Notes under the pieces: model-generated | Told to the model about the DNA's origin: nothing | What the model saw: the letters and a program-made list of their open reading frames with translations, nothing else | Databases searched by the model: none | Program-made: the position numbers and the translations under genes | In this document: in pieces, positions 7,884-57,665 of the stretch | Numbering within the stretch: the first letter of the stretch is position 1 | Layout of the letters: every line of letters starts with the position of its first letter | Origin: a virus | Taxonomy: Duplodnaviria > Heunggongvirae > Uroviricota > Caudoviricetes | Length of the DNA: 64,000 nucleotides | IMG/VR virus record: IMGVR_UViG_3300021138_000004 | Direction: 5' to 3' (one strand)

Positions 7884-7988
7884 TTGTTTGGTCCTTGTGT
7901 GTGTTTCTATGCTTTGTTATACTAACATCGCAACGGAGTGTCAACTGGAAAATCTAATTCTTGATGAATTTATACGGTAAATATCTGT

Positions 7989-8627
7989 ATGAAAAAGCTA
8001 TTTGTTCCTACTAGGTTATATATTAAAAGAATTGGAAATCTCCGGTATTTCGGAAAAACAAGTAATCTCAATGTTGAGAATTATCCTGGTTCTGGTAAAA
8101 TATGGAGAGATAAAATTAAAAAATATGGTAAATCGTCCATCATTACTGAATGGATTTCAGACTGGTATTACGATGCTGATGAAATTCGGGAAGTAGCAAT
8201 ATCATTTAGCATAGAGAATGATATTATCGATTCTGAAAATTGGGCCAATCTAAAAATAGAAAATGGAATAGATGGGGGACCGTGCGCCCATACAGTAGAA
8301 TCTAGGTCTAAAATCTCTAGGGGAGGCAAAGGTCGAATATGCTCGGAAATAACTAAAAGAAAAATAGCCAATGGAAAGCTGGGAAAGAATCATCCTTTAT
8401 TTACCGGACACTATGTAACACCTTGGGGAGTATTCGAATCCTCGTATGAAGCAAAACGAATGCTTGATCAAGATAGCGAATACAGCACATTGGCTCAAAG
8501 AACAATCCATCAATATTGTAAAGCTAACTGTGATAAAAGATTTGGTAAAAATGGAAATCTTCCTATCAACCGATGGTATAAAACCCCTAGAGAATTAGGT
8601 TTTGGATTTATTCCGGCAAATAATTAG
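7989..8627 (+). CDS. GIY-YIG-like homing endonuclease
   Basis: LYIKRIGNLRYFGKTS and ENWANLKIENG resemble I-TevI GIYxIxN..YVGSA / ENFWIKELNS; plus-strand insert in a minus-strand block. Confidence 0.6.
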   Translation: MKKLFVPTRLYIKRIGNLRYFGKTSNLNVENYPGSGKIWRDKIKKYGKSSIITEWISDWYYDADEIREVAISFSIENDIIDSENWANLKIENGIDGGPCAHTVESRSKISRGGKGRICSEITKRKIANGKLGKNHPLFTGHYVTPWGVFESSYEAKRMLDQDSEYSTLAQRTIHQYCKANCDKRFGKNGNLPINRWYKTPRELGFGFIPANN

Positions 8628-8638
8628 TTTATATTTCT

Positions 8639-9004
8639 TTATGTTCGTTTGAAATCCACCGATTCACTATAGTAGCCATTGGAAGAGCCATAGAACCGAA
8701 TGGTAACATACCCTTTGATAGTTGCTAGCCTGTAGAAGGTCCAAGTGAACGAGTCGTCGTAACCGTCGATGGGTTGGCACCCATCATTGTCGTTGACGCT
8801 GGACACCTCTTCGGCCATGAGGATCGGAGTGCCAATGAGATCGTCGAGGTCGCCGTCGATGGATTCCACATAGACCGATTCGCAGCAGTCCTGCTCGTGG
8901 TAGAGCTTATAGCTCTCGTCGTCGCTGACAACGAAATGAACTTCGTATTCGTCGCTCCAACACCGAGCAAGGGTCTTGCCGACAAGCGCGCTGAAATCGA
9001 GCAT
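8639..9004 (-). CDS. hypothetical protein (start MLDFSAL)
   Basis: ORF track 8639..9019 begins with TTG; ATG at 9004 has GGAG RBS. Confidence 0.55.
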   Translation of the reverse strand: MLDFSALVGKTLARCWSDEYEVHFVVSDDESYKLYHEQDCCESVYVESIDGDLDDLIGTPILMAEEVSSVNDNDGCQPIDGYDDSFTWTFYRLATIKGYVTIRFYGSSNGYYSESVDFKRT

Positions 9005-10979: not shown

Positions 10980-11007
10980 TGTCGGTCTCCTTGCTTTGCT
11001 TATAGCA

Positions 11008-11373
11008 CTAGGGACGATAACCGTCAACAGGAATTTCTTCTCCGTCCGACAAAAGATCATCATGAAATTGCGCAAGGCGGCGAGGATATTCTGCAATCGC
11101 CCAGTCGATAATCTTCTGGACTTTTTGCTTGACATCTTGAATCGATGCAGGCAAATCGATGGAGATCCAACTGCTGTGATCAAGGCAGACCCGATCAATA
11201 CTGGGATCACACTTGTTGAGGTCGTCCTCCATGTCTTCCTGCAAGCGATGCAGAATGTTGGTGCGTTCGCTCCAGTACCACCGAGGTTCATTAGGCTGCA
11301 TCTGCCACATTGCATCAAATGGAGCCAATGCTTCGTCTAAGTGAAGTGTTGCGCCGTAAGTAATAGTGATCAT
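11008..11373 (-). CDS. hypothetical protein (121 aa)
   Basis: ORF track. Confidence 0.6.
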   Translation of the reverse strand: MITITYGATLHLDEALAPFDAMWQMQPNEPRWYWSERTNILHRLQEDMEDDLNKCDPSIDRVCLDHSSWISIDLPASIQDVKQKVQKIIDWAIAEYPRRLAQFHDDLLSDGEEIPVDGYRP

Positions 11374-11406
11374 TTCACGATTCCTTGTTGTTTGTGCTAT
11401 ACTAGC

Positions 11407-11652
11407 CTAGGCAGCTTGCAGCAGGAGGTCTTCTTGCTCGAGTTGGCGATAGTATTCGCAACGAGCAAGGAAATCCTCAGGTGATTCGTTGTGATACGGG
11501 CGTTCACCGTATTCCTTGATGATGTCGCGGATTTCGCGCGGAAGGCTGTCGTAGTATTCCATTTCTTCGGCAGCCCACATCTTGATTTGTTCGTTGATAA
11601 AGATCATTTCCCAATCTCCTTGTTTTGTGTGTTGCGTATAGCGTAACAGCAC
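11407..11652 (-). CDS. hypothetical protein (81 aa)
   Basis: ORF track. Confidence 0.6.
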   Translation of the reverse strand: MLLRYTQHTKQGDWEMIFINEQIKMWAAEEMEYYDSLPREIRDIIKEYGERPYHNESPEDFLARCEYYRQLEQEDLLLQAA

Positions 11653-12599
11653 TAGGCTGTCACGAGGCCTTCTCCGCGGCTACTTTGAGCAGCTGACTTG
11701 CATAGACTGCGATACGCGGCCCTGCTGAGCGCCCTGCCCTTGCTGTCATATTCCTGAACAACCGTTTCGGTAATGACCGGTGCGTCATACTCGGTGTTGA
11801 CCGTTCCTTCGAGTGTTTCGTCGGCGCCCAACTCGCCGACGATCTCATACCTGCAGCTTCGACCCTTGCTGTCATTGTAATCGCTCGGAATCGACACCAC
11901 ATCGCGCGGGTTGATCTTGAGGATCATGATGCGATCACCGCCGAAGTAATTCAGGTAGTGCTGGCTGCAAAAGTGCAGGCCCTCGGAGCAGGTACGATCC
12001 TTGTCATCGTCGACAGCGTTGCGATCCATGCTGACCACAGTAATGCCGTTTTCAACAGCAACAGTGACCTTGCCGGCCTTCATGGGCATCGCAGCCGCTT
12101 CTTCAACAGTGAGCAGATCAGCGGGCTTGTTCAGCACCGTGCCTGAATGGATATCGAAGTAGTCGTTGCGGACCTTCTTGTAGGCCAGGAAATGACCATC
12201 AGGAGTGATGGGCAGTTCGCCCTTTTCCAGGAACCCATAAAGCTCGTCCACAGCCCGCTTCGAAGGATTCTGCATCAGGTTTTCCATGAACAGCACCATG
12301 GGCTCAATGCTGAAGCCTTCCTGATACATATTGATGATCTTGATGGCCAGCGAGTTGTGAAGCTTGTCACCCTTCCAGAACAGCGTATCGCCCTGGATGG
12401 TCACATTGCCCTGGCCGTAGTTGATCACAGTGGCCTTCGGATCGATCAGCTCGTCGATAGCAGCCCAGTCACTGGCCTTGATCGCGTCGATGATGCGGTT
12501 GTAGAACAAATGGGTGGAAGAAAAAGCGTGTGGCTTGTTGCCGATGACCACCGTCACATTTTTTCCCTGGACGATGAACGGATACCCCTTAGTATTCAT
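11652..12599 (-). CDS. rIIB: rIIB membrane-associated protein
   Basis: FMENLMQNPSKRAVDELYGFL, DGHFLAYKKVRNDYFDIHS, DRTCSEGLHFCSQHYLNYFG and PRDVVSIPSDYNDSKGRSCRYEIV match conserved T4 rIIB blocks recalled from memory; size about 315 aa. Confidence 0.85.
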   Translation of the reverse strand: MNTKGYPFIVQGKNVTVVIGNKPHAFSSTHLFYNRIIDAIKASDWAAIDELIDPKATVINYGQGNVTIQGDTLFWKGDKLHNSLAIKIINMYQEGFSIEPMVLFMENLMQNPSKRAVDELYGFLEKGELPITPDGHFLAYKKVRNDYFDIHSGTVLNKPADLLTVEEAAAMPMKAGKVTVAVENGITVVSMDRNAVDDDKDRTCSEGLHFCSQHYLNYFGGDRIMILKINPRDVVSIPSDYNDSKGRSCRYEIVGELGADETLEGTVNTEYDAPVITETVVQEYDSKGRALSRAAYRSLCKSAAQSSRGEGLVTA

Positions 12600-12659
12600 A
12601 ATTAACTTACTCCTTGTGAGTGTGTAGTGCCTAACTTGTCTCTGTAGTATATACGAAAT

Positions 12660-13403
12660 CTAAAGCGTGTCAACTGATTCTTGTCGGAAAAAATATCCTT
12701 TATGTATTTTATTCCTTCCACGAATACAGCTTCGAACTGATGAATAACAAAATCCATTGGCTTTGATTTCTTTGCAGCCTTTCATTCTTATTTCGGGACC
12801 TCCTTCTAATGGTGTTGCAATTATCTCTCCTTTATATGAGGGATTTAATTCTTTGTCAAGACCTTTGTGTCCTTTGTTTGCTAAAGAAATTTTCTGTTTT
12901 GATTCGTTTGAGTGATTTCCCCACGAACGACCCTTTGCGCGGTCGCTTATTTTCTTGGCTACTTCGGGTCGTTTAGAAACATTCCCGTCGCCCTGTTGCC
13001 GAATATTCGGCCGGCCTTTTAATGTCTTACTTGTCTTCTCTCGGGTTTCTGCGGATACGATCCGACCTGAGTTTCGTTGGCTCACTTCGTCAGCATATCG
13101 CCTGCGTATCCATCCAAACAGCTTGTTAGTAGTGCGCGGAGTGTTTTTGTTAGACATTGACATAGCCTGACAGGCATATACTAAAGATGGCTCGGTTGGA
13201 TAAATCTTAACCAACAGTAAATGAGCTATCCAATGCTCCTCTGGAGTGAGATAAATCAAGTTGAGCTTGTCGTTAGATCCGCCCATGCATCGAGGAACTA
13301 TATGGTGCCGTTCATAATATACATACCCCGGCATTCCTCTGCGTTTTTTGGTGCGTCCTTGTGACCTTGCTATTAGTTGGTTATATACCTTTTGATAATC
13401 CAT
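12660..13403 (-). CDS. HNH homing endonuclease with NUMOD-like basic repeats
   Basis: YERHHIVPRCMGGSNDKLNLIYLTPEEHWIAHLL HNH motif; lies between rIIA and rIIB. Confidence 0.8.
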   Translation of the reverse strand: MDYQKVYNQLIARSQGRTKKRRGMPGYVYYERHHIVPRCMGGSNDKLNLIYLTPEEHWIAHLLLVKIYPTEPSLVYACQAMSMSNKNTPRTTNKLFGWIRRRYADEVSQRNSGRIVSAETREKTSKTLKGRPNIRQQGDGNVSKRPEVAKKISDRAKGRSWGNHSNESKQKISLANKGHKGLDKELNPSYKGEIIATPLEGGPEIRMKGCKEIKANGFCYSSVRSCIRGRNKIHKGYFFRQESVDTL

Positions 13404-13457
13404 ACTTTATCCTCCACACTATTTAGTCGTGCTTTGGATAAAGTATGGATATGCCGA

Positions 13458-15611
13458 TTATTTTCCTTTCGCAGCATCCACAAGCCGGATGTATTCAGCG
13501 ACAGCAGTCGCTTCGGCATAGTGATTGATCTGCGACAGTAGCGGATACCGATTGACCGAGCTGCGAAGCGCGGCAGTTTCGACATCAACTTTGACAGTCA
13601 CATCCTTCTGAGTGATCTTGTCACCATATGCAGTGATCAGCGAGCGCAGAGCATGATGATCGAACTTGATCTTGTCAGCAGCACGGATAGCTTCGATCGA
13701 AGTCTTATACGGGCTGTCTGCGGCAATCAACTTCAGCACATCGTCGGTGTAGCGATAACGGTCACCGTTGTCAACCATCGATGCAGCCATCTTCGAAATA
13801 GTTGCTGCATCAATGCCGTTGATCGTGTCAACGACCACAGTTTCGAAGTTAACCCAATTAGCCATATTCGCAATCGCATCGCGAGCGTCCTTGCGAAGTC
13901 CGTAGACCTTAATACCCTCGGCGAACAGGCCTGCCGAAACTGCCTTGCGAACCAACTCACTGACTTCGATCTGGCCTTCAAGCTCGGCGGTCAGTGCCTT
14001 GATGGGCACATAGTAATGAGTCGCAGTCTTGTCAAAGCTGGCAATGGGCTTGTCTTCGCGCCAGACCAAGTCTGCATCACGCGACCGATAGGCATAGCTG
14101 CCGGCGTTGCGCTTCTGCAGGACGAACGCATTGGACAGCACAGGAGCCGCAGCAGGACCACGCACGGCCTTCTCCGACGGCGTGAGCGCGCTGACCATGA
14201 TCTGCTTGGGCGGATTGTGCAGCGCCTTGATCAAGGCTGCGGTGTTCATGGGCACCTTCTTGTCAATGGGCTGAGCAAGCCAAACAATATGCTCACCATA
14301 GAGCGCCTTGAAGTGCCGCTTGGCACGAATCAGCGGATTGCTCTGACCGTCGTTGATCACAAGATTGAAGTGGCTGGCCACAGGAATCTGCCAAAAACTG
14401 ACCGAACCTTTGCTGACATGATCGTATTCGGTATCAACGCGGATGGTCTTGACGACATCACTGTAGCTAGCGGACCTGAAGGCCGAGAAGCTGATGTTCC
14501 ATTTGACAAGATCAGCAGCATTGATCCGCAAACGATTGACGTGCGGGCGACCGTAGTAGCCATTGGAAATCAAATCGTTTGGATTGTTGTTGAGATATTG
14601 CGTGGCAGCAGCCTGCGTCAGCTTGCTGGCGCCGAACTTCTCAAGCTGGAGAGCAAAATCCCATTCGTTGGTATACTGCTTCAATTCTTCGGCAATATAC
14701 GATTCAAGGTGATCGGCAACAGCCTGCAGCTTGGCCTTGATTGCAGCAATGGTCTCCGGAATGTAGCTGAGACCTTCGCGTGATGCCTGGATGTCAAGCT
14801 CACCGATGTCAAAGTGCAGCTCGAGGCCGCACTCGAGCACTTGTGCAAGATCACCGAGGTTAGCCACCGCGTTGGGCACCTGCAACGGATAACCAATGTT
14901 ACCCATCACTGCGGTGCTGTAGTGGCTGCGACCGAGCTCATGCACGCCGGGCATGATGTCCTTGCGAGCATAGTTGACAGTCTCGGGCTCAAACCCGTCA
15001 ACGCCGATCACGTTGGGCTTGGTAGCGAAATACTTGAACACTTCGCGAGCTTCTTGGTGGAACTTGCGGAAGTCGTAGCTGTCATTGACACCAAAACGGA
15101 CTTCAACACCGTTCGGATCAGTAGTCTCTTCTTCCATCATCAGTGCGATCGACGGAACACCGTGTTCGTTGATGAACGCAGTATATACGCCGCGCCGGCC
15201 GTCCTTGACTGCGGTAACAGTGAAGTTATCGGTATAGGAAAACGCAGCCTTGGAACCAAGACCGAGGCCGCCGATAACGTCGTTCGACTCAGACTTGGTC
15301 GACTCGAAGTAGGTGGTGTAAATCTGCACCACGCCTTCATGGCTCAAACCGATGCCGTAGTCGCGAACAGCGAACCAAGGCTCCAAGGTGTTCGGAAGAT
15401 GCACATCGAACGGGCAATCAGCGCGGCCAGCCATGATGTGCGAATCCCAAGCATTGCAGGAATACTCGCGGATGATCGCCTTGATCTTGTTGGCATACAA
15501 GCCGCTGGAAAGAATCGAAAATGCCTTTGCGCTATTGCGAATGCGGAACTCACCAGTTTCGCCGACATTGCTGAGAACAGGCAAATTCTCAGCAGCACTC
15601 TTGATGATCAT
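13458..15611 (-). CDS. rIIA: rIIA protein (GHKL-type ATPase fold)
   Basis: EYSCNAWDS (N box), VRDYGIGL (G1), GGLGLGSKAAF (G2); about 717 aa; immediately upstream of rIIB as in T-even phages; start at MIIKSAAENL with AAGGA RBS. Confidence 0.85.
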   Translation of the reverse strand: MIIKSAAENLPVLSNVGETGEFRIRNSAKAFSILSSGLYANKIKAIIREYSCNAWDSHIMAGRADCPFDVHLPNTLEPWFAVRDYGIGLSHEGVVQIYTTYFESTKSESNDVIGGLGLGSKAAFSYTDNFTVTAVKDGRRGVYTAFINEHGVPSIALMMEEETTDPNGVEVRFGVNDSYDFRKFHQEAREVFKYFATKPNVIGVDGFEPETVNYARKDIMPGVHELGRSHYSTAVMGNIGYPLQVPNAVANLGDLAQVLECGLELHFDIGELDIQASREGLSYIPETIAAIKAKLQAVADHLESYIAEELKQYTNEWDFALQLEKFGASKLTQAAATQYLNNNPNDLISNGYYGRPHVNRLRINAADLVKWNISFSAFRSASYSDVVKTIRVDTEYDHVSKGSVSFWQIPVASHFNLVINDGQSNPLIRAKRHFKALYGEHIVWLAQPIDKKVPMNTAALIKALHNPPKQIMVSALTPSEKAVRGPAAAPVLSNAFVLQKRNAGSYAYRSRDADLVWREDKPIASFDKTATHYYVPIKALTAELEGQIEVSELVRKAVSAGLFAEGIKVYGLRKDARDAIANMANWVNFETVVVDTINGIDAATISKMAASMVDNGDRYRYTDDVLKLIAADSPYKTSIEAIRAADKIKFDHHALRSLITAYGDKITQKDVTVKVDVETAALRSSVNRYPLLSQINHYAEATAVAEYIRLVDAAKGK

Positions 15612-15679
15612 TGTGTAGTCCTTCTGTTGCTGTCTACCTCTCTGTTTTAGCAGAAAAGTAGACAGCGTCAAGTGGTTTT

Positions 15680-15850
15680 TTAGGCTTTGTTATCGATCCT
15701 GAAGACCATTTGTCTCCATTGCCGCTCCAACTCAAGGACCACGGTGTCCCAATAGGCTCGTGCCCATTCACCTACGGCAAGATCGAGCGCATCACGGGCA
15801 GAGTCGAGCCTACGACCTGCTTGATTGATTTCTTCTTCGCATCCAAACAT
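15680..15850 (-). CDS. small hypothetical protein (56 aa, start MFGCEEEINQ)
   Basis: ORF track 15680..16024 truncated to ATG that follows TTGACC-17-TATAAC promoter and RBS. Confidence 0.45.
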   Translation of the reverse strand: MFGCEEEINQAGRRLDSARDALDLAVGEWARAYWDTVVLELERQWRQMVFRIDNKA

Positions 15851-15987
15851 TGTTACCCTTTCTGGACGTTGTGAGTTTGTCGTTATAGCAGCATTAGATG
15901 ACAAGGTCAACGGATAAAGATAAATAAAAGTGCCAATCGCGATCCTGCAAGATCCATTGGCCCTAACGCTTACAAGGAGCATCAGCA

Positions 15988-16599
15988 ATGAATATTTATT
16001 ACGTCTACGCATACCTTCGAACAAAAGATCTCACACCATATTACATCGGCAAAGGTAAAGGTCGCAGGGTTTATGAAAAACATAACGTCCCTGTTCCTTC
16101 TGATAAATCCCGTATCGTGTTTCTTGAAAAAAACCTAACTGATATCGGCGCGTGTGCATTAGAGCGAAGATATATTCGTTGGTATGGACGAAAAGATATC
16201 AACACTGGAATACTCCGGAATAGGACCGACGGCGGCGAAGGAACTTCTGGTTTCATCCGTGACCAAGAATTGGTAGTTAGAACAATGGAAACCAGAAGAA
16301 AAAACGGAACGTGGTCGACAGTTACTCCGGAATCTATTGCGTTGAGAACAGAAACTAGAAAACGCAATGGTTACCAATTTACAGAAAAATCTGCGGAAAA
16401 AATGCGCCAAACAAAAAATAAAAATGGAACCTCTAATTCTAATTCTCCGGAGTCTAATGCTAAACGAGTCGCTACTCGAAAGAGTAATGGCACCTACAAA
16501 CAGACTCCGGAGTCGATCGCCAAAATGCTAGAAACAAAGAGGCGAAATAAAGAATTAAGACTTAGTAGTAACATTGGATTTGAAAAGCATACCGGTTAG
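15988..16599 (+). CDS. GIY-YIG homing endonuclease (Seg-like) with NUMOD3-type repeats
   Basis: [33 protein letters not shown] motif; repeated SPESIAxxxETRKRNG units; AAGGAG RBS. Confidence 0.85.
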
Positions 16600-16770
16600 C
16601 ACCGACAGCCCCCACGCCTGGCCCCAACCGATCTGATGAAGCCCCGATACTGCGTCAACAAGGCAGCCGTTCCACAGCCACATCACGGGCAGCGCAAACA
16701 GGAGGCCGATAACGAAAATAGCGAGGATGCCAAGCACGGCAACACCGACAACAGTAGAAATAGTATTCAT
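16555..16770 (-). CDS. small membrane protein (start [12 protein letters not shown])
   Basis: ORF track 16555..16818; AAGGAG RBS before internal ATG; 3' end overlaps the HEG. Confidence 0.5.
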
Positions 16771-16804
16771 TTTTTTCTCCTTCTTTCGAGTTGGCAATTC
16801 GCCA

Positions 16805-17200
16805 TCAAGCTTCAGCAAAGACCACCCCTGCTTCTGCCAGTTCTTGAACCATCATTTTCGCAGCAGCATCTCTGGCGTCCGCCGCCTGTGCGAGAATCGA
16901 ATTGGGTTTTACCACGCCGCCACGCAGCTTCTTGGGCTTGATATCCACAAGGTCTGCGAGTTTGCGCTTGCGAGCTTCTGCCTCCATTGTTGCTCGAACT
17001 TCGGCATTGCCGTTGTCGAAGTCAATGCGGAACAGATACCGCAGGGTGTCATCCTTGGACATTGCATTCCGCAATTGGATCATGTCAATTTTATTATGAC
17101 CACACTTGATAAGGACTGCTACTCGTTCAGCACTGTTTGCCCATCGAACCCGCATTTTTCCTTCTAAGCATGACACTCCTGCATAGGTAAAAGTGGACAT
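16805..17200 (-). CDS. hypothetical protein, paralog of 517..1053 (start MSTFTYAGVS)
   Basis: ORF track 16805..17299; AAGGAG RBS; TTGACA-17-TATAAC promoter. Confidence 0.6.
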   Translation of the reverse strand: MSTFTYAGVSCLEGKMRVRWANSAERVAVLIKCGHNKIDMIQLRNAMSKDDTLRYLFRIDFDNGNAEVRATMEAEARKRKLADLVDIKPKKLRGGVVKPNSILAQAADARDAAAKMMVQELAEAGVVFAEA

Positions 17201-17339
17201 AAACTTCTCCTTATTGCTGTCTATGGATGTGTTATAGCAAGATCTAGCTAGTATGTCAAGCGGTAATGATAAATAAAAGTGCAAACCGCGATACCGCAAA
17301 TATCCGTTTGCTCTAACAGTTTAAGAGGAACTATCAGCG

Positions 17340-17993
17340 ATGTATTTACACAACAAATATTCTAAATGGTATAATTCGATTATCGAAAGAGCGCGTTCTC
17401 GTTCAATTGAGGGTTATACTGAATCACACCATATTATTCCTAAATGTATAGGCGGCACTAACAAGAAAGAAAATCTAGTGCGTCTTACCTATCGTGAACA
17501 TCGACTATGCCATTTATTGCTACCATATATGGTTACCTCTGAATACAAAGGACTGATGTGGAGGGCTGCAAAAGGTGTTCTAATGTATAATGGGCCAAAT
17601 CATGAACGGGTTGAAAGTAGAAGCCGATTAGCTGAGAAAGCTAGGATCGAAGCTACTTCGTCTCGCAAAGGTATTCCTCGCAGTCCGGAAACTATCGCTA
17701 AAATAAAAGCTACCAAAGCAGCGCGTCCGATGTCCGATGAAAATCGCGAACTATCTCGACAAAAACGAATTCGAGCAAACCAATCTCGAAAAGGAATGCC
17801 ACATAGTGCTGAACATAATCGAAAAGTTTCGGAATCACGAAACGGACAACAGTCACCAAATAAAGGAAAATCGATGAGCTTCGAGCAGCGCCAAAAAATA
17901 AGCGAAGCTCATAAGGGAAAAATAAGGAGCGTCGAACATTGTCAAAATATCAGCAAAGCAAAGACGACCGAGCTTAAGAATCGATCTACCTAA
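17340..17993 (+). CDS. HNH homing endonuclease with NUMOD3-type repeats
   Basis: ESHHIIPKCIGGTNKKENLVRLTYREHRLCHLL; repeated SPETIAKIKATK / SAEHNRKVSESR units. Confidence 0.85.
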   Translation: MYLHNKYSKWYNSIIERARSRSIEGYTESHHIIPKCIGGTNKKENLVRLTYREHRLCHLLLPYMVTSEYKGLMWRAAKGVLMYNGPNHERVESRSRLAEKARIEATSSRKGIPRSPETIAKIKATKAARPMSDENRELSRQKRIRANQSRKGMPHSAEHNRKVSESRNGQQSPNKGKSMSFEQRQKISEAHKGKIRSVEHCQNISKAKTTELKNRST

Positions 17994-18008
17994 CCTTAGT
18001 GAAGAATG

Positions 18009-18826: not shown

Positions 18827-18850
18827 TTACCTTACTCCTTTGTTTGTGTG

Positions 18851-18882
18851 TTGACACTAGCAACCTGCGTCCCTAGTGTCAA
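18851..18882 (-). promoter_or_regulatory. palindromic sigma70-like promoter (TTGACACTAG...CTAGTGTCAA)
   Basis: minus strand TTGACA-17-TAGTGT; 10-bp perfect inverted repeat covers both elements. Confidence 0.5.
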
Positions 18883-18887
18883 CCTGA

Positions 18888-19935: not shown

Positions 19936-19965
19936 TTCGTTCTCCTTGTTTGTGTTGTGCTGTCA

Positions 19966-19994
19966 CTGTATTAGCAACAGCACAAGGCAATGTC
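19966..19994 (-). promoter_or_regulatory. sigma70-like early promoter (TTGACA-17-TAATAC)
   Basis: read on minus strand. Confidence 0.5.
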
Positions 19995-20004
19995 AAGAAC
20001 TATT

Positions 20005-20602: not shown

Positions 20603-20606
20603 TGAT

Positions 20607-23761: not shown

Positions 23762-24469
23762 ATGATACCTGGATATGCTTATTTGATTGAAAACACTGTT
23801 ACTGGACAGTATTATTATGGATCTCGGACTGCTAATGTTAGGCATAATCGATTGCCTGTAGATGACCTGTGGAAATGTTATTTCACTTCATCGCGCGATG
23901 TTAAACGAATAATCAAGGAATTTGGAAATGAATCGTTTGTTGTCAAAGTGGTATTTGAGAGCACCGATTTAGATGAAGTGTATTGGGTAGAACAGTCACT
24001 GATTAAACAATATATTGAAGATCCCCAGTGCATTAACAAAAAATATCAAGATAAAGATTCGGGACACGAGATTTTCAGCACCGCCGGTAAAATTTCATGG
24101 AATAAAGGATTACCTTCTTTGAAAAAAGGTATAACCCGATCTCCGGAAATTAAGGCAAAGATAAGTGAAGCTAGAAAAGGTAAAGGTCTAGGGATTGCAC
24201 CTTCGAATAAAGGAATCCCTATGTCTCCTGAAAGGTATGATCTGCATATGGCTGCAATTTCTAAACGAAGGTCTTATGCGGGCGAAAACAATCACTTCTT
24301 TGGAAAAACTCATTCACCCGAAATCAAAGCCCTCATTGCAGCAAACACTAGCAAAGCACAAAAGGGCAAGCCTAAAACTAAAAAGGCTTGCCCTCATTGT
24401 GAAAAATTATATGCACCTCACCTTATGTCACGACATCGGTGTGTTATGCCGCCCGACGTAGAAGCGTAG
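23762..24469 (+). CDS. GIY-YIG (Seg-like) homing endonuclease
   Basis: MIPGYAYLIENTVTGQYYYGSR...DLW..YFTSS shared with 28173 and 46744 genes; C-terminal repeated SPEIKAKISEARKGK units. Confidence 0.75.
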   Translation: MIPGYAYLIENTVTGQYYYGSRTANVRHNRLPVDDLWKCYFTSSRDVKRIIKEFGNESFVVKVVFESTDLDEVYWVEQSLIKQYIEDPQCINKKYQDKDSGHEIFSTAGKISWNKGLPSLKKGITRSPEIKAKISEARKGKGLGIAPSNKGIPMSPERYDLHMAAISKRRSYAGENNHFFGKTHSPEIKALIAANTSKAQKGKPKTKKACPHCEKLYAPHLMSRHRCVMPPDVEA

Positions 24470-25549: not shown

Positions 25550-25636
25550 TTGGTGGGCGCGGTCGGACTCGAACCGACACGGGGGAACCCCGGGAGATTT
25601 TAAGTCTCCTGCGTATGACCAGTTTCGCCACGCGCC
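25550..25636 (-). tRNA. tRNA-Leu (anticodon UAA), type II long variable arm, CCA encoded
   Basis: hand-folded: acceptor GGGCGCG/CGCGCCC, anticodon stem GGAGA/TCTCC with loop CTTAAAA, variable arm GGGG-TTC-CCCC, T arm GTCGG-TTCGAGT-CCGAC. Confidence 0.85.
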
Positions 25637-26220
25637 CTTAATTTTTTCGCTCTTACATAGTTTCCGCCTTTTGGCGTAAGTCCTACTTTCTGTAATGCTT
25701 GACGAATATTAGCTGATTCTGTCAACGCTGTCAAGAGTTTTTCGTCATCGATTTTTACCTTTCCTGTGTTAATGTTCCTACCCCGCCAAGTTGGCGTTAA
25801 GGCGTGACAGTTACAACACAACAGTTTCAGGTTCGATTTGATATTATTCCTGTTATCTCCGTCAGTATGTTCGAGTTCTAACGGAATAGGTTGATGATTC
25901 CACTCGGTTAGATTGCACTCTTCACACTGATGTCCGCGTTCTTGAATAAGGAATTGTTTATGATTCCCGGTTCCGTTGTATTCAAACACCGTTTTTGGAA
26001 AAACATCTTTGTTCCATGCCATTTTCTTTTTTGAATCATCTGGCAGATCTCTATAAGCGTCACTACCGGATTTTCTTTTCCCAGTTTCGTAGACTAGTTT
26101 AGTAGAATCCGAATTGATTTTCTTGAGAACTGAACAACCCGAAGGCCGTTTAGAACAACAATTTTTTCCATTCTTTAATTGAAACTTAGCTTCTTTACCA
26201 CATCCATAATCGCAATACAT
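25600..26220 (-). CDS. HNH endonuclease (zinc-finger type)
   Basis: CCNCHALTPTWRGRN HNH core with N-terminal Cys cluster; AGGAG RBS; 3' end overlaps the tRNA-Leu 5' end. Confidence 0.75.
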   Translation of the reverse strand: MYCDYGCGKEAKFQLKNGKNCCSKRPSGCSVLKKINSDSTKLVYETGKRKSGSDAYRDLPDDSKKKMAWNKDVFPKTVFEYNGTGNHKQFLIQERGHQCEECNLTEWNHQPIPLELEHTDGDNRNNIKSNLKLLCCNCHALTPTWRGRNINTGKVKIDDEKLLTALTESANIRQALQKVGLTPKGGNYVRAKKLRARGETGHTQET

Positions 26221-28172: not shown

Positions 28173-28808
28173 ATGTCTATTTATTACACTTACCATCTAT
28201 ATCACAAGCTAACTGACAAAAATTATTATGGAGTCAGGTATGCAAAAGGATGTCACCCTTCTGATCTATGGACAATTTATTTCTCATCTTCTAAAGAAGT
28301 GCGTAAACTTATCGAAGAACACGGTAGAGATTCATTCGTAGCACAAGTTCGAAAAACTTTTCCTACTAAAGATGCAGCCATAGAATGGGAAACCCGGTTT
28401 CTGCGAAAAATTAACGCTGCTAATAATGACCGATGGTTAAACCGATCAAACGGTGATAAAAATTTCAGAGGGACAGGATTGTCTAGTGATAAACAACGTC
28501 GAGCGTCTAGTAAAGCAAATAAAGGAAAAATCGTTAGCGAAGAGACTCGTCAAAAAATACGAGATGCCCGAAAACGGCAGGCTCCGCCTAGTGAAGAAAC
28601 TCGTCGTAAAATCAGTGAGTCGAACAAAAATCGAGTGCATAGCGAAGAGACTCGCCGAAAACTAAGTGACGCTCAAAAAGGTCGCGTTTTCAGTAAAGAG
28701 TCTCGTGCTAAAATGAGTGAAGCAAGAAGAAACATTACTGAAGAAACGCGACTTAAATTGAGTTTGGCAAAAAAAGGCCAAATTCCTTGGAATAAAGGTA
28801 AAAAATGA
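28173..28808 (+). CDS. GIY-YIG (Seg-like) homing endonuclease with NUMOD3 repeats
   Basis: MSIYYTYHLYHKLTDKNYYGVRYA; repeated SEETRQKIRDARK units; close paralog of 46744..47424. Confidence 0.8.
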   Translation: MSIYYTYHLYHKLTDKNYYGVRYAKGCHPSDLWTIYFSSSKEVRKLIEEHGRDSFVAQVRKTFPTKDAAIEWETRFLRKINAANNDRWLNRSNGDKNFRGTGLSSDKQRRASSKANKGKIVSEETRQKIRDARKRQAPPSEETRRKISESNKNRVHSEETRRKLSDAQKGRVFSKESRAKMSEARRNITEETRLKLSLAKKGQIPWNKGKK

Positions 28809-46590: not shown

Positions 46591-46751
46591 CGGTTAAAGA
46601 ACTCAAAGAATTGCTTGACGAATTGCCTAGCGATGCTAAAGTGTTTTATGAAGGCGGCGAATACAAGTATGACTATCGCAGCGTCTACAAGGTAGAATAC
46701 AACGAACATGCAACTTTGGCCTCGACCGGCCATTCAGTTTTTATTAGGTGA
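46587..46751 (+). CDS. small protein (GTG start overlapping the upstream TGA)
   Basis: ORF track 46527..46751 trimmed; GTGA junction. Confidence 0.45.
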   Translation: MTVKELKELLDELPSDAKVFYEGGEYKYDYRSVYKVEYNEHATLASTGHSVFIR

Positions 46752-47424
46752 CCGAGTTTCTTGGTTTACCTTTTTTAGAGTTGCTGATCTTTTGTTTGAC
46801 TTCTTCTGAGTGTCTGTAACCTGTTTTTAGTAGCGATTCACTTATTTTACGTTTTTGTTCTTCACTCATCGGTCCCCTGACTCTACCTTTTGCAGCATTG
46901 CCCATTTTTTGACGAGTTTCTTCACTTAATGTTCTACCTAGGCCACGGTTTTTACTGGCTTCACACATTTTCTGACGAGTTTCTTCACTAATTGGTGGCC
47001 TCTTTCTTCTTGATTCGGACATTTTCTGTTTTGTTTCCTCACTATGCGATTTACCGAGTCTAGACTTACTCATTTTACGGCGAGTTTCGTCAGTGTGGAT
47101 TATGGCACCTCGAAATTTTTTATCACCATTTGATCGGTTTAACCATCGATTATTAGTAGCCGCTTTGATTTTTTGTAAAAAATTTGATTCCCATTCTATG
47201 GCTGCTTCTTTGGTAGTAAATGTTTTTCGAACCCTGGCAACAAAAGTTTCTTTCCCGAATTCTTCGATAAGATTCTGTACTAATTTAGAAGATGAAAAAT
47301 AGGTGGTCCATAGATCCGATGGGTCACATCCGTCGGCATATCTGACACCATAGTAATGTTTGTCAGTCGGTGCATGATATAGGTGGTACGTGAAATAAAT
47401 AGACATGGCTGATAGTTCCTTCAT
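46744..47424 (-). CDS. GIY-YIG (Seg-like) homing endonuclease, close paralog of 28173..28808
   Basis: MSIYFTYHLYHAPTDKHYYGVRYADGC...; repeated SEETKQKMSESRR units. Confidence 0.8.
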   Translation of the reverse strand: MKELSAMSIYFTYHLYHAPTDKHYYGVRYADGCDPSDLWTTYFSSSKLVQNLIEEFGKETFVARVRKTFTTKEAAIEWESNFLQKIKAATNNRWLNRSNGDKKFRGAIIHTDETRRKMSKSRLGKSHSEETKQKMSESRRKRPPISEETRQKMCEASKNRGLGRTLSEETRQKMGNAAKGRVRGPMSEEQKRKISESLLKTGYRHSEEVKQKISNSKKGKPRNSVT

Positions 47425-53607: not shown

Positions 53608-54915
53608 ATGCACAACATTATTAAAGAACTCGAAGCAGACAATAGTCGTTTGGCCAAAGAAGCAATTCTCAAGCGAGAAGCAGATGCAGGTAACACTGGC
53701 TTTTTCGACGGTGTTCGAATGGCACTAGACAACTACATCACATTCGGTGTTAAGAAAGTTCCTATTCACGGCGGGCCCGATGGACAGGGTCTACCTTGGG
53801 AAGCGTTTGCTGCTCTTGCGACGTACCTTTATATGCGAGAACTAACCGGTCACGAAGCTCGTGATGCAATTGAGCTTGCAATGAGCGCAGCTACACAAGA
53901 CGAGTGGAACTACTGGTATCGTCGAATCCTTATCAAGGATCTTCGCTGCGGAGTCAGTGAAAAGACTGTTAATAAGATTCTTAAGGGATCTGAGATTCCT
54001 GAAGTTCCTGTTTTTGAATGTATGCTTGCACACGATGGTGCAAATCACGAAAAGAAGATCAAAGGTAAGAAGCTGCTTGAACCCAAGCTAGATGGCGTTC
54101 GCTGTCTTACCGTAATCAATTACGAAGCAAAAAGTGTAATCATGTACACTCGCAATGGCAAGGTACTTGAAAACTTCAGCCACATTGCTGAGGGTGTTCT
54201 TAAGAACATCGAAGATTTCGGTCGTAGCTATGTAATCGACGGCGAGGTTGTTTCGAATAGTTTTCAGGAACTCATGAAGCAGGTGCATCGCAAGGACGAT
54301 GTGCAGGCAACAGATGCACGGTTGATGGCATTTGATATTCTTCCACTCAGCGAGTTCCAAGCTGGTAAGAGCGCAATGGGTCAGCGTCGTCGTAGCAACT
54401 TCCTGCGCACCCTAAAGCCTATCCTAGACAAGTGCGGCAGCATTGATGTTATTACACAGCTTGAAGTTGATCTCGACAGTCTTGTTGGAGAACTTCAGTT
54501 TAAGCAATACAACAAGGATGCTATTGAAGCAGGATACGAAGGTATCCTTGTAAAAGATCCAAACTCAGTTTATGAATGCAAACGAAGTGTATCATGGTTA
54601 AAAATTAAACCAGTAATAACTGTTGATTTAACAGTAGTATCTCTTGAAGAAGGGACTGGTAAAAATATAGGGAAGCTAGGTGCATTGGTTTGCGAAGGAA
54701 CTCACCAAGGAAAATTTATTCGTGTCAATGTTGGGTCAGGATTAAATGATGACCAACGTGCAGAAATTTGGAATGATAAGGATGCAATTTTAGGACAGGT
54801 TGTTGAAATTAAAGCTGATTGCATTACTCAGAATCAAGATACTGATAGCGAATATAGCTTGAGATTTCCTAGATTTGAACGTTTTCGAGGTTTCTGTGCA
54901 GGAGATAAAATATAA
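53608..54915 (+). CDS. ATP-dependent DNA ligase
   Basis: adenylation motif I KLDGVR (KxDG); size and layout typical of phage ligases; ATG after GAGG RBS (track start is TTG). Confidence 0.85.
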   Translation: MHNIIKELEADNSRLAKEAILKREADAGNTGFFDGVRMALDNYITFGVKKVPIHGGPDGQGLPWEAFAALATYLYMRELTGHEARDAIELAMSAATQDEWNYWYRRILIKDLRCGVSEKTVNKILKGSEIPEVPVFECMLAHDGANHEKKIKGKKLLEPKLDGVRCLTVINYEAKSVIMYTRNGKVLENFSHIAEGVLKNIEDFGRSYVIDGEVVSNSFQELMKQVHRKDDVQATDARLMAFDILPLSEFQAGKSAMGQRRRSNFLRTLKPILDKCGSIDVITQLEVDLDSLVGELQFKQYNKDAIEAGYEGILVKDPNSVYECKRSVSWLKIKPVITVDLTVVSLEEGTGKNIGKLGALVCEGTHQGKFIRVNVGSGLNDDQRAEIWNDKDAILGQVVEIKADCITQNQDTDSEYSLRFPRFERFRGFCAGDKI

Positions 54916-54964: not shown

Positions 54965-55732
54965 ATGACTAATTTGTGTATTTATGGTTGCGGGAAAGAA
55001 GGTATTATCAAGAATAAATCAAATCCGGGTTGGCGATGTGCAGTAAGCCCGAATAGTTGCGCAGGTATTAAGGCTAAGAAGAGGCAAATTCTTATTGATA
55101 CATACGGTGTGACGAACGTAAGTCAAATTCCGGAAGTGCTGGCTAAAAAGAAAAACACATGGATAGAAAACTATGGAGTTGATAATCCTTCGAAAGCAAA
55201 AGTGATTGTTGATAAAATTAAAGATAGTTGGGAAGCTATTAACACTAAACGAAAACTAACGATGTTGAAAAAATACGGTACTGAAAGTTATAACAGCACA
55301 GATGAATTTAAAGATCGCAGAAAGAAAACATGGATGGAAAAATATGGAGTCGATAATCCTACCAAAAACGAAGAAATCCTTCATAAATCTATGTTATCTA
55401 ATGCAAAATCGGAATATCGAACAAAAACACTTACATTGCCTAGCGGTAAGATTATTAGATATCAGGGATTTGAAGACCAAGTAATAATGGATTTATTAAA
55501 TTCAGGGGTTCACGAAGATGATATCGTAACAGGACCAGGAAATGTTCCGCATATTAAATATGAGTTTGAAGGAAAGAGCTGTAGATATTATCCAGACATA
55601 TATCTTCCAAAACTTAACAAAATTATTGAAGTAAAATCTCAATATACTTGGGACAAATATAAAGAACGAAATGCAGCAAAGGTTGCTGCTACTAAGTCTG
55701 CAGGGTTTGAAGTTGAGGTTATTATTAAATGA
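54965..55732 (+). CDS. putative nuclease (possible homing endonuclease): N-terminal Cys cluster, three YGV(D/T)NP repeats, C-terminal PD-(D/E)xK-like motif
   Basis: CIYGCGKEG...CAGIK; YGVTNV / YGVDNPSK / YGVDNPTK; YYPDIYLPKLNKIIEVKS. Confidence 0.45.
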   Translation: MTNLCIYGCGKEGIIKNKSNPGWRCAVSPNSCAGIKAKKRQILIDTYGVTNVSQIPEVLAKKKNTWIENYGVDNPSKAKVIVDKIKDSWEAINTKRKLTMLKKYGTESYNSTDEFKDRRKKTWMEKYGVDNPTKNEEILHKSMLSNAKSEYRTKTLTLPSGKIIRYQGFEDQVIMDLLNSGVHEDDIVTGPGNVPHIKYEFEGKSCRYYPDIYLPKLNKIIEVKSQYTWDKYKERNAAKVAATKSAGFEVEVIIK

Positions 55733-55935: not shown

Positions 55936-56134
55936 GGAGAGTAACTTGGGAAACAAAATAACTGTTACTAGTGATAGAACGAAGACTATTAACGAACATG
56001 GTTTTGAAGACGAAACTATCGAAATTGATGCCGATTTCGATGAATCGATTTCACCAGAAACTGTTCAAGAATTGCTAAAAGCAATAGCAGACACAGCAAT
56101 CTACGAATTAGAAAACATTAAAGGAGATATTTAA
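55928..56134 (+). CDS. small acidic protein (68 aa)
   Basis: ORF track. Confidence 0.55.
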   Translation: MHKESNLGNKITVTSDRTKTINEHGFEDETIEIDADFDESISPETVQELLKAIADTAIYELENIKGDI

Positions 56135-56232
56135 CTAAGTGGAGATGAGTGTCCATTCTAAGGTAAACATAAACGTAATAATGTAAATACATGACTGATA
56201 GTTCCTTTTCAACTGTTAGAGTCGGTGGATCC
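56130..56232 (-). pseudogene. possible remnant of a Seg-like HEG 5' end
   Basis: about 35-bp near-repeat of the RBS/start region of HEG 46744..47424 (ctgatagttcctt...aactgttagagt), followed by only a 24-codon ORF. Confidence 0.3.
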
Positions 56233-56274
56233 TGCAAGATCGCGATCGACAATTTTATTTAGTAAGGAACAAAA

Positions 56275-56495: not shown

Positions 56496-57008
56496 TTAAC
56501 CCAAGTAAACAGCCCATTCAGGATATTTTAGGTCGATATTCATAGCTTTGCGCTTTTCGACCAATTCCCAATAACTAGGCTTATGTGGAACCTTTGCAGG
56601 CTTAATACGCTTGTCGTTGCCCTTGCGACCATTACAAGGCGAACACGCTGTTGCAGAGTTCTCAAATGTACTTTTACCGCCGTGACTGATTGGCAGCACG
56701 TGGTCTAGTGTTGCGGTCTTTTTAGTTACTGCAACACCGCAATATTGACATTTGAATTCATCTCGAAGATAAACGTTCATCTTCGAGAATCGAACATGCG
56801 CTTTCTTCTTCTGAAATTCCTTAAGCATAATAATGGAAGGAACGCGGGTTTCCCAGGTAGCAGAACGTACAATCCAGTCATTATGCCATTCTAGAACATT
56901 AACTTTGTCTAGAACTAGGTAACGAATAGCTTCCTGCCATGTGATTGCACTTAATGGCAACATGGAAACAGGGCTTCCGTCCGTGTTTAGCAATAACGTA
57001 TCGATCAC
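56496..57008 (-). CDS. HNH endonuclease
   Basis: CQYCGVAVTKKTATLDHVLPISHGGKSTFENSATACSPCNGRKGND. Confidence 0.8.
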   Translation of the reverse strand: MIDTLLLNTDGSPVSMLPLSAITWQEAIRYLVLDKVNVLEWHNDWIVRSATWETRVPSIIMLKEFQKKKAHVRFSKMNVYLRDEFKCQYCGVAVTKKTATLDHVLPISHGGKSTFENSATACSPCNGRKGNDKRIKPAKVPHKPSYWELVEKRKAMNIDLKYPEWAVYLG

Positions 57009-57044: not shown

Positions 57045-57665
57045 ATGTATTTACCTAACAAATATACAACATGGTATTATGCTATAATAACACACGCACT
57101 GACTCGTGTCAATGAAAACAGATATGTAGAGAAACATCATATTATACCAATCTCATTGGGTGGTACAAATGATGATGGAAATCTGGTAAAACTTACCGCC
57201 AGAGAACATTTTATATGCCATAGATTGTTAATAAAAATGACTACCGGAATTAATAAACAAAAAATGTGCCATGCTGCATGGGCAATGGCAACTCTTAAAA
57301 ATCCGAAGCAGGAAAGGATAAAAATAACATCAAAAGTATATGAACATTTACGAAGCAATTTATCATTAACAGACGATCACAAAAGAAAAATATCAGAAGC
57401 AAGTCGAGGAATTCCTAGAGGACCGTTTTCGGAAGAACATAAAAGAAACATGCGTAAACCGAAAAGTGAAGAACATAAACGAGCACTTTCGATAGCAAGG
57501 TCTGGTAAAACTTATGGTTATAAACATTCGGAAGAAACGAAAAGAAAAATGTCGGCATCTTCAACTGGAAGATTTCAAGGATCAATGATATGTGAACATT
57601 GCGGAAAAGAAACATCTATTGGAAATCATAATCGTTGGCACGGCATGAAATGTAAGCACCGATAA
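57045..57665 (+). CDS. HNH homing endonuclease with NUMOD3-type repeats
   Basis: EKHHIIPISLGGTNDDGNLVKLTAREHFICHRLL; SEEHKRNMRKPK repeats; ATG chosen over track TTG. Confidence 0.8.
   Translation: MYLPNKYTTWYYAIITHALTRVNENRYVEKHHIIPISLGGTNDDGNLVKLTAREHFICHRLLIKMTTGINKQKMCHAAWAMATLKNPKQERIKITSKVYEHLRSNLSLTDDHKRKISEASRGIPRGPFSEEHKRNMRKPKSEEHKRALSIARSGKTYGYKHSEETKRKMSASSTGRFQGSMICEHCGKETSIGNHNRWHGMKCKHR

Follow-up and report, generated by a model that had tools for sequence, protein, structure and literature searches.

The stretch of viral DNA examined here, 64,000 nucleotides (nt) of IMG/VR record IMGVR_UViG_3300021138_000004 (hereafter, the window), carries ten probable free-standing homing endonuclease genes (HEGs), one of which lies between the phage genes rIIA and rIIB. 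We consider it likely that the window is early-region DNA of an uncultured, T4-like phage from fresh (lake) water; that the ten genes, of the HNH (Mob/I-HmuI-like), GIY-YIG (Seg-like) and, in one case, PD-(D/E)xK types, accumulated as self-contained inserts that are missing from near-identical relatives; and that the element at the rII locus is a site-specific cassette. Free-standing homing endonucleases are regarded as a driver of local gene conversion and mosaic structure in phage genomes, and the evidence comes mostly from T4 and a few cultured relatives. The present comparison adds uncultured freshwater phages in which ten elements form natural pairs of occupied and empty sites at 95–98% identity; their sequences directly reveal insertion points, tracts of conversion, decay of elements and swaps of nuclease domains.

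The window is a 64-kb part, probably from the early region, of a genome of at least 143 kb. A lake-metagenome contig of 143 kb (ENA ERZ27271863) encodes the window’s proteins as well, as do short contigs of JGI 3300000176 and of a Logan run, and their context is unchanged in every case. Gene calling on the source contig gave identical products for the rII locus: rIIA of 717 amino acids (aa), an HNH protein of 247 aa and rIIB of 315 aa. A megablast search of positions 11000–17000 against GenBank phages returned no match, and tblastn against GenBank phages found relatives only below 46% identity (the rIIA of the window is less than 46% identical to any); cultured phages were thus unusable as HEG-less comparators. 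Related loci, labelled here with L-numbers (L008–L106), were used for comparison, and the borders of inserts were mapped by BLASTN against L025, L026/L027 and L028/L029. In homolog searches, the closest rIIA was that of L025 (97% aa identity), followed by that of L026/L027 (86%). The DNA ligase of L028/L029 is 89% identical to that of the window, and the DNA around it has 95–98% nucleotide identity. IMG/VR contributed 18 more distant rII loci and 56 ligase loci, and all 11 nuclease proteins discussed below were compared by tblastn with about 95 related loci.

The initial annotation had counted at least 11 nuclease genes in the window. All 11 proved to be intact open reading frames (ORFs) with nuclease-family support, and profile matches and gene calls agreed in placing rIIA, the HNH/NUMOD3 gene and rIIB where that annotation had put them. 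Comparison with relatives lacking the inserts showed that 10 of the 11 genes are missing there, with sharp borders, from flanking DNA that is 95–98% identical. With each gene named by its type and first coordinate, L025 is without HNH12660, GIY15988, HNH17340 and GIY23762; L026/L027 additionally lack GIY7989, HNH25600 and GIY28173; and L028/L029 lack PD54965, HNH57045 and a 9-kb block bearing GIY46744. In the related loci, tblastn found no orthologs of the ten other than the HNH12660 lineage (see below) and a partial match, to GIY15988. These data support the proposal of the initial annotation that the ten are sporadic free-standing HEGs, predicted from their sequences to be active nucleases capable of homing. 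The candidates outside the rII locus, together with one decayed copy, are as follows.

7989..8627, + strand (opposite to its surroundings): GIY-YIG-like/NUMOD3 HEG; window-specific segment ~7903–8657, missing from L026/L027.
15988..16599, + strand (opposite): GIY-YIG HEG; insert 15868–16579, missing from L025; ATAAATA 68 nt upstream.
17340..17993, + strand (opposite): HNH/NUMOD3 HEG; insert 17192–17999, missing from L025; ATAAATA 71 nt upstream.
23762..24469, + strand (opposite): GIY-YIG/NUMOD3 HEG; insert 23727–24472, missing from L025; a perfect TATAAATA begins 13 nt upstream.
25600..26220, − strand: HNH HEG with an N-terminal Cys-rich motif; insert ~25638–26273, missing from L026/L027; ATAAATA 25 nt upstream.
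28173..28808, + strand (opposite): GIY-YIG/NUMOD3 HEG; segment ~28032–28939, in place of which L026 has two small ORFs.
46744..47424 (likely start 47406), − strand: GIY-YIG/NUMOD3 HEG at the right edge of an island (38425–47476); 58% identical to the 28173 gene.
54965..55732, + strand: DUF7487/PD-(D/E)xK-type HEG directly after the DNA ligase gene; 54807–55728 has no alignable counterpart in L028; ATAAATA 23 nt upstream.
57045..57665, + strand: HNH/NUMOD3 HEG; insert 57019–57661, missing from L028/L029 and from the 56 IMG/VR loci; ATAAATA 25 nt upstream.
56118..56262, − strand: decayed HEG, consisting of the common HEG leader and a 24-codon ORF (MYLHYYVYVYLR...), within a window-specific 337-nt insert (55941–56277), missing from L028/L029.

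Seven of the 11 nuclease genes run against the local gene direction, in agreement with the observation of the initial annotation that several oppose their neighbors. Genes 7989, 23762, 28173 and 46744 are of the GIY-YIG/NUMOD3 type by their matches to phrog_314 (E-values of 3e-32 to 5e-9) and SegE_GIY-YIG, the score of the latter exceeding its cut-off for 23762 only; the GIY-YIG motif of gene 7989 is degenerate (E 4.8e-9). The assignment of gene 15988 to this type came solely from a YVYAY..YYIGKG motif and 79% identity to another GIY-YIG N-terminal domain. All five GIY-YIG genes combine the motif and NUMOD3 with sporadic occurrence, each being missing from L025, L026 or L028. Among the HNH genes, 12660, 17340 and 57045 match phrog_655, 25600 matches phrog_14736 and 56496 matches Pfam HNH/HNH_5, while gene 54965 matches DUF7487 (E 2e-50) and has a D..ExK motif at its C-terminus. 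The HEG ORFs are richer in AT than their surroundings: in the first 30 kb, their GC content is 0.396, as compared with 0.493 around them, and in the remainder the two values are 0.357 and 0.416. The start codon of gene 46744 is probably its second ATG, at 47406. Besides the 11 genes, a twelfth, truncated GIY-YIG remnant was found (the decayed copy listed above); a six-frame phmmer scan of the window uncovered no additional full paralogs. HNH25600 (25600–26220) and PD54965 (54965–55732) have a common N-terminal Cys-rich motif, C.YGCGKE...C....P..C...K, which suggests one putative zinc-ribbon DNA-binding module placed on two distinct catalytic domains.

The relatives have inserts of their own. 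In L025, a GIY-YIG gene of 155 aa occupies a site (~19501/19540) at which the window has no insert; over 91 residues, its nuclease domain and that of GIY15988 are 79% identical, and its C-terminus is unrelated. The two genes represent a domain swap tied to a different insertion site. Two more inserts of L025 (4056–5322 and 6910–7688) have no counterpart in the window, and neither is nuclease-like: they encode a 172-aa protein with a weak DUF1281_C match and a 242-aa protein without matches.

The element at the rII locus comprises the following features, the promoter, hairpin and motif assignments being predictions.

13458..15611, − strand: rIIA, 717 aa (phrog_612, E 4.5e-128).
11652..12599, − strand: rIIB, 315 aa (phrog_609, E 1.7e-68); ~84% nucleotide identity to L025.
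12660..13403, − strand: putative HNH homing endonuclease gene, 247 aa (phrog_655, E 1.3e-53), with an HNH core, NUMOD3 and a C-terminal I-HmuI-like DNA-binding module.
12679..13456, − strand: window-only segment of 778 nt, missing from L025, which has 0 nt there between homologous flanks.
13428..13455, − strand: leftover of the ancestral rIIB 5′ end, GGCATATCCATACTTTATCCAAAGCACG, 2 nt past the rIIA stop; left border of the cassette.
13398..13450, − strand: RNA hairpin, in which the 15-nt arm ATCCATACTTTATCC (13436–13450) pairs with GGATAAAGTATGGAT (13398–13412).
13420–13427, − strand: late-promoter-like motif ACTAAATA in the hairpin loop.
12646..12673, − strand: sigma70-like promoter TTGACA-16-TATACT for rIIB (11/12 matches).
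12565..12620, − strand: rebuilt rIIB start, with Shine-Dalgarno sequence AAGGAG, ATG (12597–12599), extra codons AAT ACT AAG and duplicated codons GGGTATCCGTTCATCGTCCAGGG.

The initial annotation described the HNH gene as inserted between rIIA and rIIB. Its location between these genes stands; the site, however, was not a pre-existing intergenic gap but lay within the 5′ end of the ancestral rIIB. In L025 and L026/L027, rIIA and rIIB are separated by 79–86 nt with no ORF inside, and in distant HEG-less relatives the rIIA stop is coupled to the rIIB start (..GGAGTTTAAAATG.., ..TAAAATG), rIIB beginning MS[YF]P[FY]I[IV]QG. In the window, the rIIA stop (TAA) is followed by 2 nt and then by GGCATATCCATACTTTATCCAAAGCACG, a decayed copy of the first rIIB codons. 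When the window was scanned with a degenerate pattern for rIIB codons 3–10, there were no mismatches at the real rIIB start and one at the leftover; the five other matches had three mismatches each, which is chance level. Downstream of the leftover come, in order, ACTAAATA, a Shine-Dalgarno sequence (GGAGGA) and the HNH ORF. The −35 box of the rIIB promoter lies within the final six HNH codons, and after the promoter come AAGGAG, ATG, three additional codons and a second copy of the YPFIVQG codons, which opens the functional rIIB. The leftover 5′ fragment and the duplicated rIIB codons place the element inside the ancestral rIIB, after about codon 9–10. The cassette appears to restore rIIB by means of a duplicated 5′ end and its own promoter. 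A literature search found no description of a HEG at the rIIA/rIIB junction, and this apparent re-heading of a gene, with a displaced target fragment that may be reused as a translational operator, would be a variant for which we met no description within the literature searched.

Two generalizations from this anatomy did not survive. The rule that every HNH-bearing genome has an N-terminally extended rIIB was dropped: it holds in 6 of 8 lineages, and L104 and L106 start with MFPY and have no extension. Outward-facing sigma70 promoters were sought in each cassette of the window, and only the rIIB promoter and one upstream of HNH25600 were strong; a scan for sigma70-type sites gave 36 vs. 25.8 ± 4.9 in shuffled sequences, a difference of about two standard deviations and no clear enrichment. 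Other insertions occur at the same junction. Two small ORFs (104 and 144 aa) separate rIIA and rIIB in L008 (12178–12910), a 78-aa ORF lies between rIIA and the leftover fragment in L106 (3198–3434), and L011 and L014 have ~140 additional nt there (~12155–12300). The boundary between rIIA and rIIB looks like a hot spot for inserts in general.

The HNH12660 protein has a catalytic motif of the form E-HH...N...H, with E31, H33, H34, N48, H57 and H61 invariant in 13 aligned homologs. Its Pfam HNH match is below that profile’s own cut-off, NUMOD3 scored 23.2 bits (cut-off 20.4), the I-HmuI NUMOD-like domain scored 20.6 bits (under its cut-off of 27), and a phrog_3855 helix-turn-helix was matched on residues 193–243. 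A predicted model (pLDDT 78.7) had I-HmuI (1u3e) as its top match in the PDB, and this match was weak (Foldseek E 7e-3, TM-score 0.22–0.29, 21% identity); a sequence search of the PDB gave nothing meaningful. By its sequence, the protein belongs to a large family of T4-like phages annotated as free-standing homing endonucleases; 1104 GenBank phage records hold homologs with this annotation, all below 45% identity.

A homolog search gave 217 HNH proteins at E ≤ 1e-10. Full-length homologs at 52–68% identity define eight lineages: the window, L030, L035, L036–L041, L042–L045, L102, L104 and L106. In all eight lineages sampled, the HNH gene lies between rIIA and rIIB in the same orientation, after about codon 9–10 of the ancestral rIIB, and the leftover rIIB fragment stands directly upstream of an invariant TAAATA. 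The rIIA proteins of the HNH-bearing lineages are just 38–52% identical to that of the window. L030 and L104 have the late motif in its perfect form, TATAAATA; in L035, L102 and L106, it conforms to NATAAATA. In four lineages, the leftover is an intact mini-ORF of 9–11 codons of the MS[YF]P[YF]I[IV]QG type (MSYPYLIQGK.. in L030, MSFPYIVQGKA in L102, MSYPYIIQG in L104 and MSFPFIIQGL in L106); it is degraded in the window, L035, L036 and L042. A 19-nt direct repeat (89% identity) brackets the cassette in L030. A repeat finder detected no cassette-flanking repeat in the window, L035 or L036, where the copies are too decayed and are visible only with the degenerate pattern. A sigma70-like promoter between the HNH 3′ end and rIIB was present in all five lineages checked (the window, L035, L036, L044/L045 and L030). 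Weaker homologs that match in the nuclease domain only (L031–L034, 43–48%) have flanks with no match to rIIA or rIIB. Additional opposite-strand HNH/NUMOD3 genes occur near the rII locus of L036 (7117–7848), L039 (3191–3922) and L102 (305–1183); they are missing from the same-type contigs L037 and L038, which gives more occupied/empty pairs.

The displaced fragment may serve to control expression of the nuclease. In the RNA of the window’s spacer, the leftover (13436–13450) is predicted to pair with GGAUAAAGUAUGGAU (13398–13412) in a 15-bp stem that leaves TAAATA in the loop; the second arm covers half of the Shine-Dalgarno sequence GGAGGA and the HNH AUG. The computed free energy (dG) is −26.9 kcal/mol (z −7.05), and none of 200 shuffled sequences was equally stable. 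The same hairpin is found in L035, L036 and L042 (dG of −27.7, −30.7 and −28.2; z of −7.65, −7.88 and −5.28, respectively), with covariation at one position, which is C-G, G-C or U-A depending on the lineage. The remaining four lineages have another hairpin, short and perfect, that starts directly after the late-promoter motif and ends at the AUG. At this locus, then, a stable and conserved hairpin has a late motif in or next to its 5′ arm, the pattern expected for occlusion of a ribosome-binding site. Upstream of the other nine HEGs, such hairpins were not significant (95-nt folds, z −0.25 to −2.0). In the control documented for T4 e, soc, 49 and I-TevI and for Aeh1 mobE, and implicated for segB, early read-through RNA is untranslatable and late RNA starting within the structure is translated (PMC3014915). 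The retention of putatively late-only expression through two RNA designs argues that delayed expression is under selection.

The late motif is also associated with the other HEGs. Of the 18 exact copies of ATAAATA in the window, eight are situated 12–71 nt upstream of a sporadic HEG on the same strand (8 of 10 HEGs; expected 0.105, Poisson P 3e-13; 0 of 20000 random placements reached 8). The two remaining HEGs have TAAATA variants upstream. A ~75-nt leader of the form GATAAATAA - stem-loop - CTCTAAC - AGGAAC - TATCAGC - ATG is common to GIY15988, HNH17340, GIY28173, GIY46744, the HEG of L025 and the decayed copy at 56118–56262, and so spans two nuclease families. At HEGs 7989, 15988, 17340, 23762, 28173 and 46744, TGTCAA(C/G) is conserved 10–45 nt upstream of the late motif; its complement is TTGACA, but no matching −10 box was found.

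From these observations, we propose the following mechanism for the rII element. From 5′ to 3′, the cassette would consist of the displaced rIIB fragment, a late-promoter-like (N)NTAAATA, a Shine-Dalgarno sequence with the HNH ORF, a sigma70-like promoter and the rebuilt rIIB start. In early read-through RNA from rIIA, the displaced fragment would fold onto the HNH ribosome-binding site and AUG, and no nuclease would be made; late transcripts starting inside the hairpin would be devoid of the 5′ arm and be translated. When a HEG-less relative infects the same cell, its rIIA/rIIB junction would be cut by the nuclease; with the HEG-bearing genome as repair template, the cassette would be copied along with adjoining parts of rIIA and rIIB. 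The cassette may show how an element can enter a translationally coupled gene pair without inactivating the downstream gene. More tentatively, and with somewhat less than even confidence, we suggest that it exemplifies a design, free of intron and intein, for residence in coding sequence: the element would carry duplicate first codons, a promoter and a ribosome site for the gene that it interrupts, and the displaced copy of its target would act as the arm that masks the ribosome site and possibly also as a binding site for the nuclease, as in the autorepression of I-TevI. Were this design general, genes that are translationally coupled could be open to HEG invasion at their 5′ ends, and the design might help explain larger HEG-bounded islands such as 38425–47476.

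The flanks of several inserts are mosaic. Compared with L025, rIIA is 97–100% identical over its first 1.9 kb, and the value for its final ~500 nt is 81–92%. Beyond the insertion boundary, toward rIIB, two bins of 100 nt each (12479–12678), spanning the promoter, the leader and roughly 120 nt of the rIIB 5′ end, are 55% and 75% identical, and identity is 83–98% thereafter; L025 and L026 are 73% and 92% alike in those bins. A second tract adjoins PD54965.

54540..54915, + strand: mosaic 3′ end of the DNA ligase gene, 55–73% identical to L028 vs. 93–100% upstream.

This tract comprises the last ~360 nt of the gene, to its stop codon; the neighboring genes have 94–100% protein identity, and the C-terminus of the window’s ligase resembles the L046 allele. 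The right flank of GIY23762 is diverged, too (63–82%). That homing co-converts flanking DNA is documented (PMC2988022); the rII mosaic tracts are compatible with homing but are no proof of it.

The direction of the change at the rII locus was judged from the window, L025 and L026. L025 and L026 have neither the ORF nor the leftover fragment nor the three additional codons of rIIB, and the pattern of sequence similarity points to ((window, L025), L026) as the grouping. As the HEG is missing from both relatives, a single gain is more parsimonious than two losses. Such a gain would have involved conversion over 1.4 kb or more, with a donor that is not among the sampled genomes and is ~85–90% identical. 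L026 is equidistant from the window and L025 across the tract, and its use as an outgroup does not single out the recombinant. HNH-bearing and HNH-less lineages are interspersed by rIIA similarity.

Several observations weigh against this account of homing and recent gain. The flanks of 15988, 17340 and 57045 are nearly undiverged, so co-conversion is not visible at every insert. The window’s ACTAAATA matches TATAAATA at 6 of 8 positions, and the late sigma factor gene lies outside the window. The downstream copy of rIIB retains the duplicated codons, so that any immunity must be put down to differences in sequence. In the 28 pairwise comparisons of HNH-bearing lineages, HNH and rIIA identities rise together (Spearman 0.67, P 1e-4), which means that HNH has had a strong, long and partly vertical history at the site and that recent horizontal transfer into the window’s lineage is not proven. 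Finally, L025 and L026 keep a promoter spacer of ~80 nt homologous to the 3′ end of the cassette, which would fit an earlier loss of HNH as well as it would an ancestral spacer. The last two points favor loss instead of gain, i.e., an HNH cassette that was an old vertical resident and whose ORF L025 and L026 lost by deletion or by recombination with a HEG-less allele. Distant HEG-less phages that couple the rIIA stop directly to the rIIB start speak for it as well, as does the nearest outgroup clade (rIIA ~50% identical), which is largely HNH-bearing. Nonetheless, under the grouping above, this explanation requires either that the cassette was lost twice with almost the same end points or that a loss was followed by a transfer; a simple deletion would have left flanks of ~98%, and those observed are 55–92%; and the leftover fragment and the three extra codons are both missing in L025 and L026. 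We regard it as unlikely. An earlier loss in the ancestor of the trio followed by re-invasion, the classic cycle, would fit the spacer best.

Two further explanations do without homing as the driving force. Homologous recombination between repeated promoter/leader modules, as in PeSL-type shuffling, could have moved the nuclease genes as mere cargo. PeSL-mediated indels have been described for T4-type phages (PMC2839356, PMC4122927), and such a process would account for the leader that four HEGs of two families share with the HEG of L025 and the decayed copy, for the ~70–80-nt elements repeated between early genes, and for the several inserts with clean flanks and no conversion tract. Yet the leader is found on only one side of each insert and cannot alone provide two crossover points; all 10 of the single-gene-sized indels checked encode intact nucleases; sharp mosaic tracts adjoin the rII and ligase inserts; and the position of the rII HNH is identical in eight lineages. 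Shuffling of this kind as the main cause seems quite improbable to us. We give little credence to the proposal that the rII HNH gene is a domesticated nuclease, kept for a benefit to the phage such as excluding competitors or cutting host DNA, and not purely selfish. The intact full-length ORFs and invariant catalytic motif in 8 of 8 lineages and the elaborate, conserved expression control are what it would predict, and HNH exceeds rIIA in conservation in every one of the 28 pairs of HNH-bearing lineages (means of 57% and 43%). The gene is dispensable in the closest relatives, however; a selfish HEG likewise needs an intact nuclease and tight regulation to persist, and marker exclusion is already a normal by-product of homing (PMC2988022). 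We retain homing of a site-specific cassette as the best explanation.

The one nuclease gene that did not behave as a sporadic insert, contrary to the initial annotation, is the following.

56496..57008, − strand: conserved HNH-domain gene, 170 aa, GTG start (Pfam HNH/HNH_5), syntenic in 41 related loci.

Its protein is 98–99% identical in L028/L029, and orthologs at 54–71% occur in 41 loci at the same place and on the opposite strand, in the order ligase, small gene, eIF-1a-like gene and HNH on the opposite strand. This conservation and synteny make it a core component instead of a sporadic HEG. Together with a 71-aa eIF-1a/S1-like gene (PF01176 on the L028 ortholog), it forms a pair (56275–57008) downstream of DNA ligase in ~40 phages; the pair is not a mobile element. 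In phage annotations, then, the label “HNH” spans conserved core genes as well as selfish ones.

The claim of an unusually high HEG density was borne out: the ten sporadic genes amount to 15.6 HEGs per 100 kb and 10.4% of the bases. T4, with 15 HEGs and 11% of its coding potential, has been called an outlier (PMC2988022), and Pectobacterium phage CB7 has 23 HEGs, the ORFs of its 21 HNH genes making up ~7% of the genome (PMC7344957). The window’s figures are at the top of the T4–CB7 range; they apply to a 64-kb part of a genome that measures at least 143 kb. Its close relatives are far poorer in HEGs, with one sporadic HEG and the conserved HNH gene in the window-overlapping parts of L025 and L028.

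The HEGs described here are new members of well-known families, and it is the before/after comparison that is unusually clean. HNH12660 resembles the Mob endonucleases, especially MobE of Aeromonas phage Aeh1, in being free-standing and in adjoining a conserved phage gene, and both genes have a ribosome-binding site concealed in an RNA hairpin, which in the present case is predicted from the sequence (PMC3014915, PMC2988022). In contrast to MobE, the rII cassette sits at the 5′ end of rIIB and not at nrd genes, its target being judged from the insertion site; HNH12660 is less than 45% identical to any GenBank phage protein; rIIB is neither split nor untouched but gets a new start and its own promoter; and the 5′ arm of the hairpin is a displaced fragment of the target. 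The HNH12660 model appears to share an elongated, multi-module architecture with I-HmuI, the HNH nicking endonuclease of Bacillus phage SPO1 (PDB 1U3E), but I-HmuI is intron-encoded and HNH12660 is free-standing, and the similarity is weak. Like T4 SegA–G, the GIY-YIG genes of the window combine a GIY-YIG N-terminal domain with NUMOD3 repeats and are intergenic, often on the opposite strand, and sporadic. Flanking co-conversion and marker exclusion have been described for SegF and SegG (PMC2988022). The window’s GIY-YIG genes differ from the Seg family in being distant in sequence and in having a ~75-nt leader that an HNH gene also uses, and one relative has the same nuclease domain (79%) fused to another C-terminus at another site. 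With T4 e, soc, 49 and I-TevI, the rII cassette shares the sequestration, here a sequence-based prediction, of the Shine-Dalgarno sequence and AUG, with a late promoter in or next to the 5′ arm (PMC3014915); it differs in having ACTAAATA and not TATAAATA in the window and in the use of two hairpin designs in one HNH lineage. The PeSL cassettes of T4-type phages are promoter-containing segments at indel borders between close relatives (PMC2839356, PMC4122927), which the modules of the window may resemble. Those of the window, however, accompany nuclease genes, and their leader has a late-type motif instead of an early promoter and terminator. The practical value of the elements is modest: they are candidate site-specific nucleases with an inferable target region.

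GIY46744 lies at the right edge of a 9,052-nt island (38425–47476), in place of which L028/L029 have ~26 nt. The island begins with a gene of 424 aa on the + strand, followed on the − strand by genes of 248, 363, 424, 952, 111, 81 and 79 aa. The protein of 952 aa is an AAA+ ATPase, for which an exact look-up returned no record and an IMG/VR scan no relatives; the 424-aa gene at 41602–42876 has a weak DUF2201_N metallopeptidase match, and the island genes gave no PADLOC hits. ATAAATA motifs precede the genes at 38501 and 46074. The island could be cargo travelling with a HEG. Two neighboring genes within it on the − strand (40524–41615 and 41602–42876) overlap by 14 nt and match phrog_1314 at positions 46–182 and then 161–298, which suggests a split or frameshifted gene.

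Some minor features of the window deserve mention. Elements of ~50–80 nt are repeated between small early genes (18835–18883, 19940–20005, 20542–20613 and 20876–20952); they cross-match several positions in L026/L027 and recall the promoter/stem-loop repeats of the PeSL type. At 22424–22453, a perfect GC-rich palindrome of 13 bp (TGACACTAGCGCC..GGCGCTAGTGTCA) has a terminator-like score on both strands. Near position 30000, gene direction and composition switch together, from mostly − strand and ~49% GC to mostly + strand and ~41% GC.

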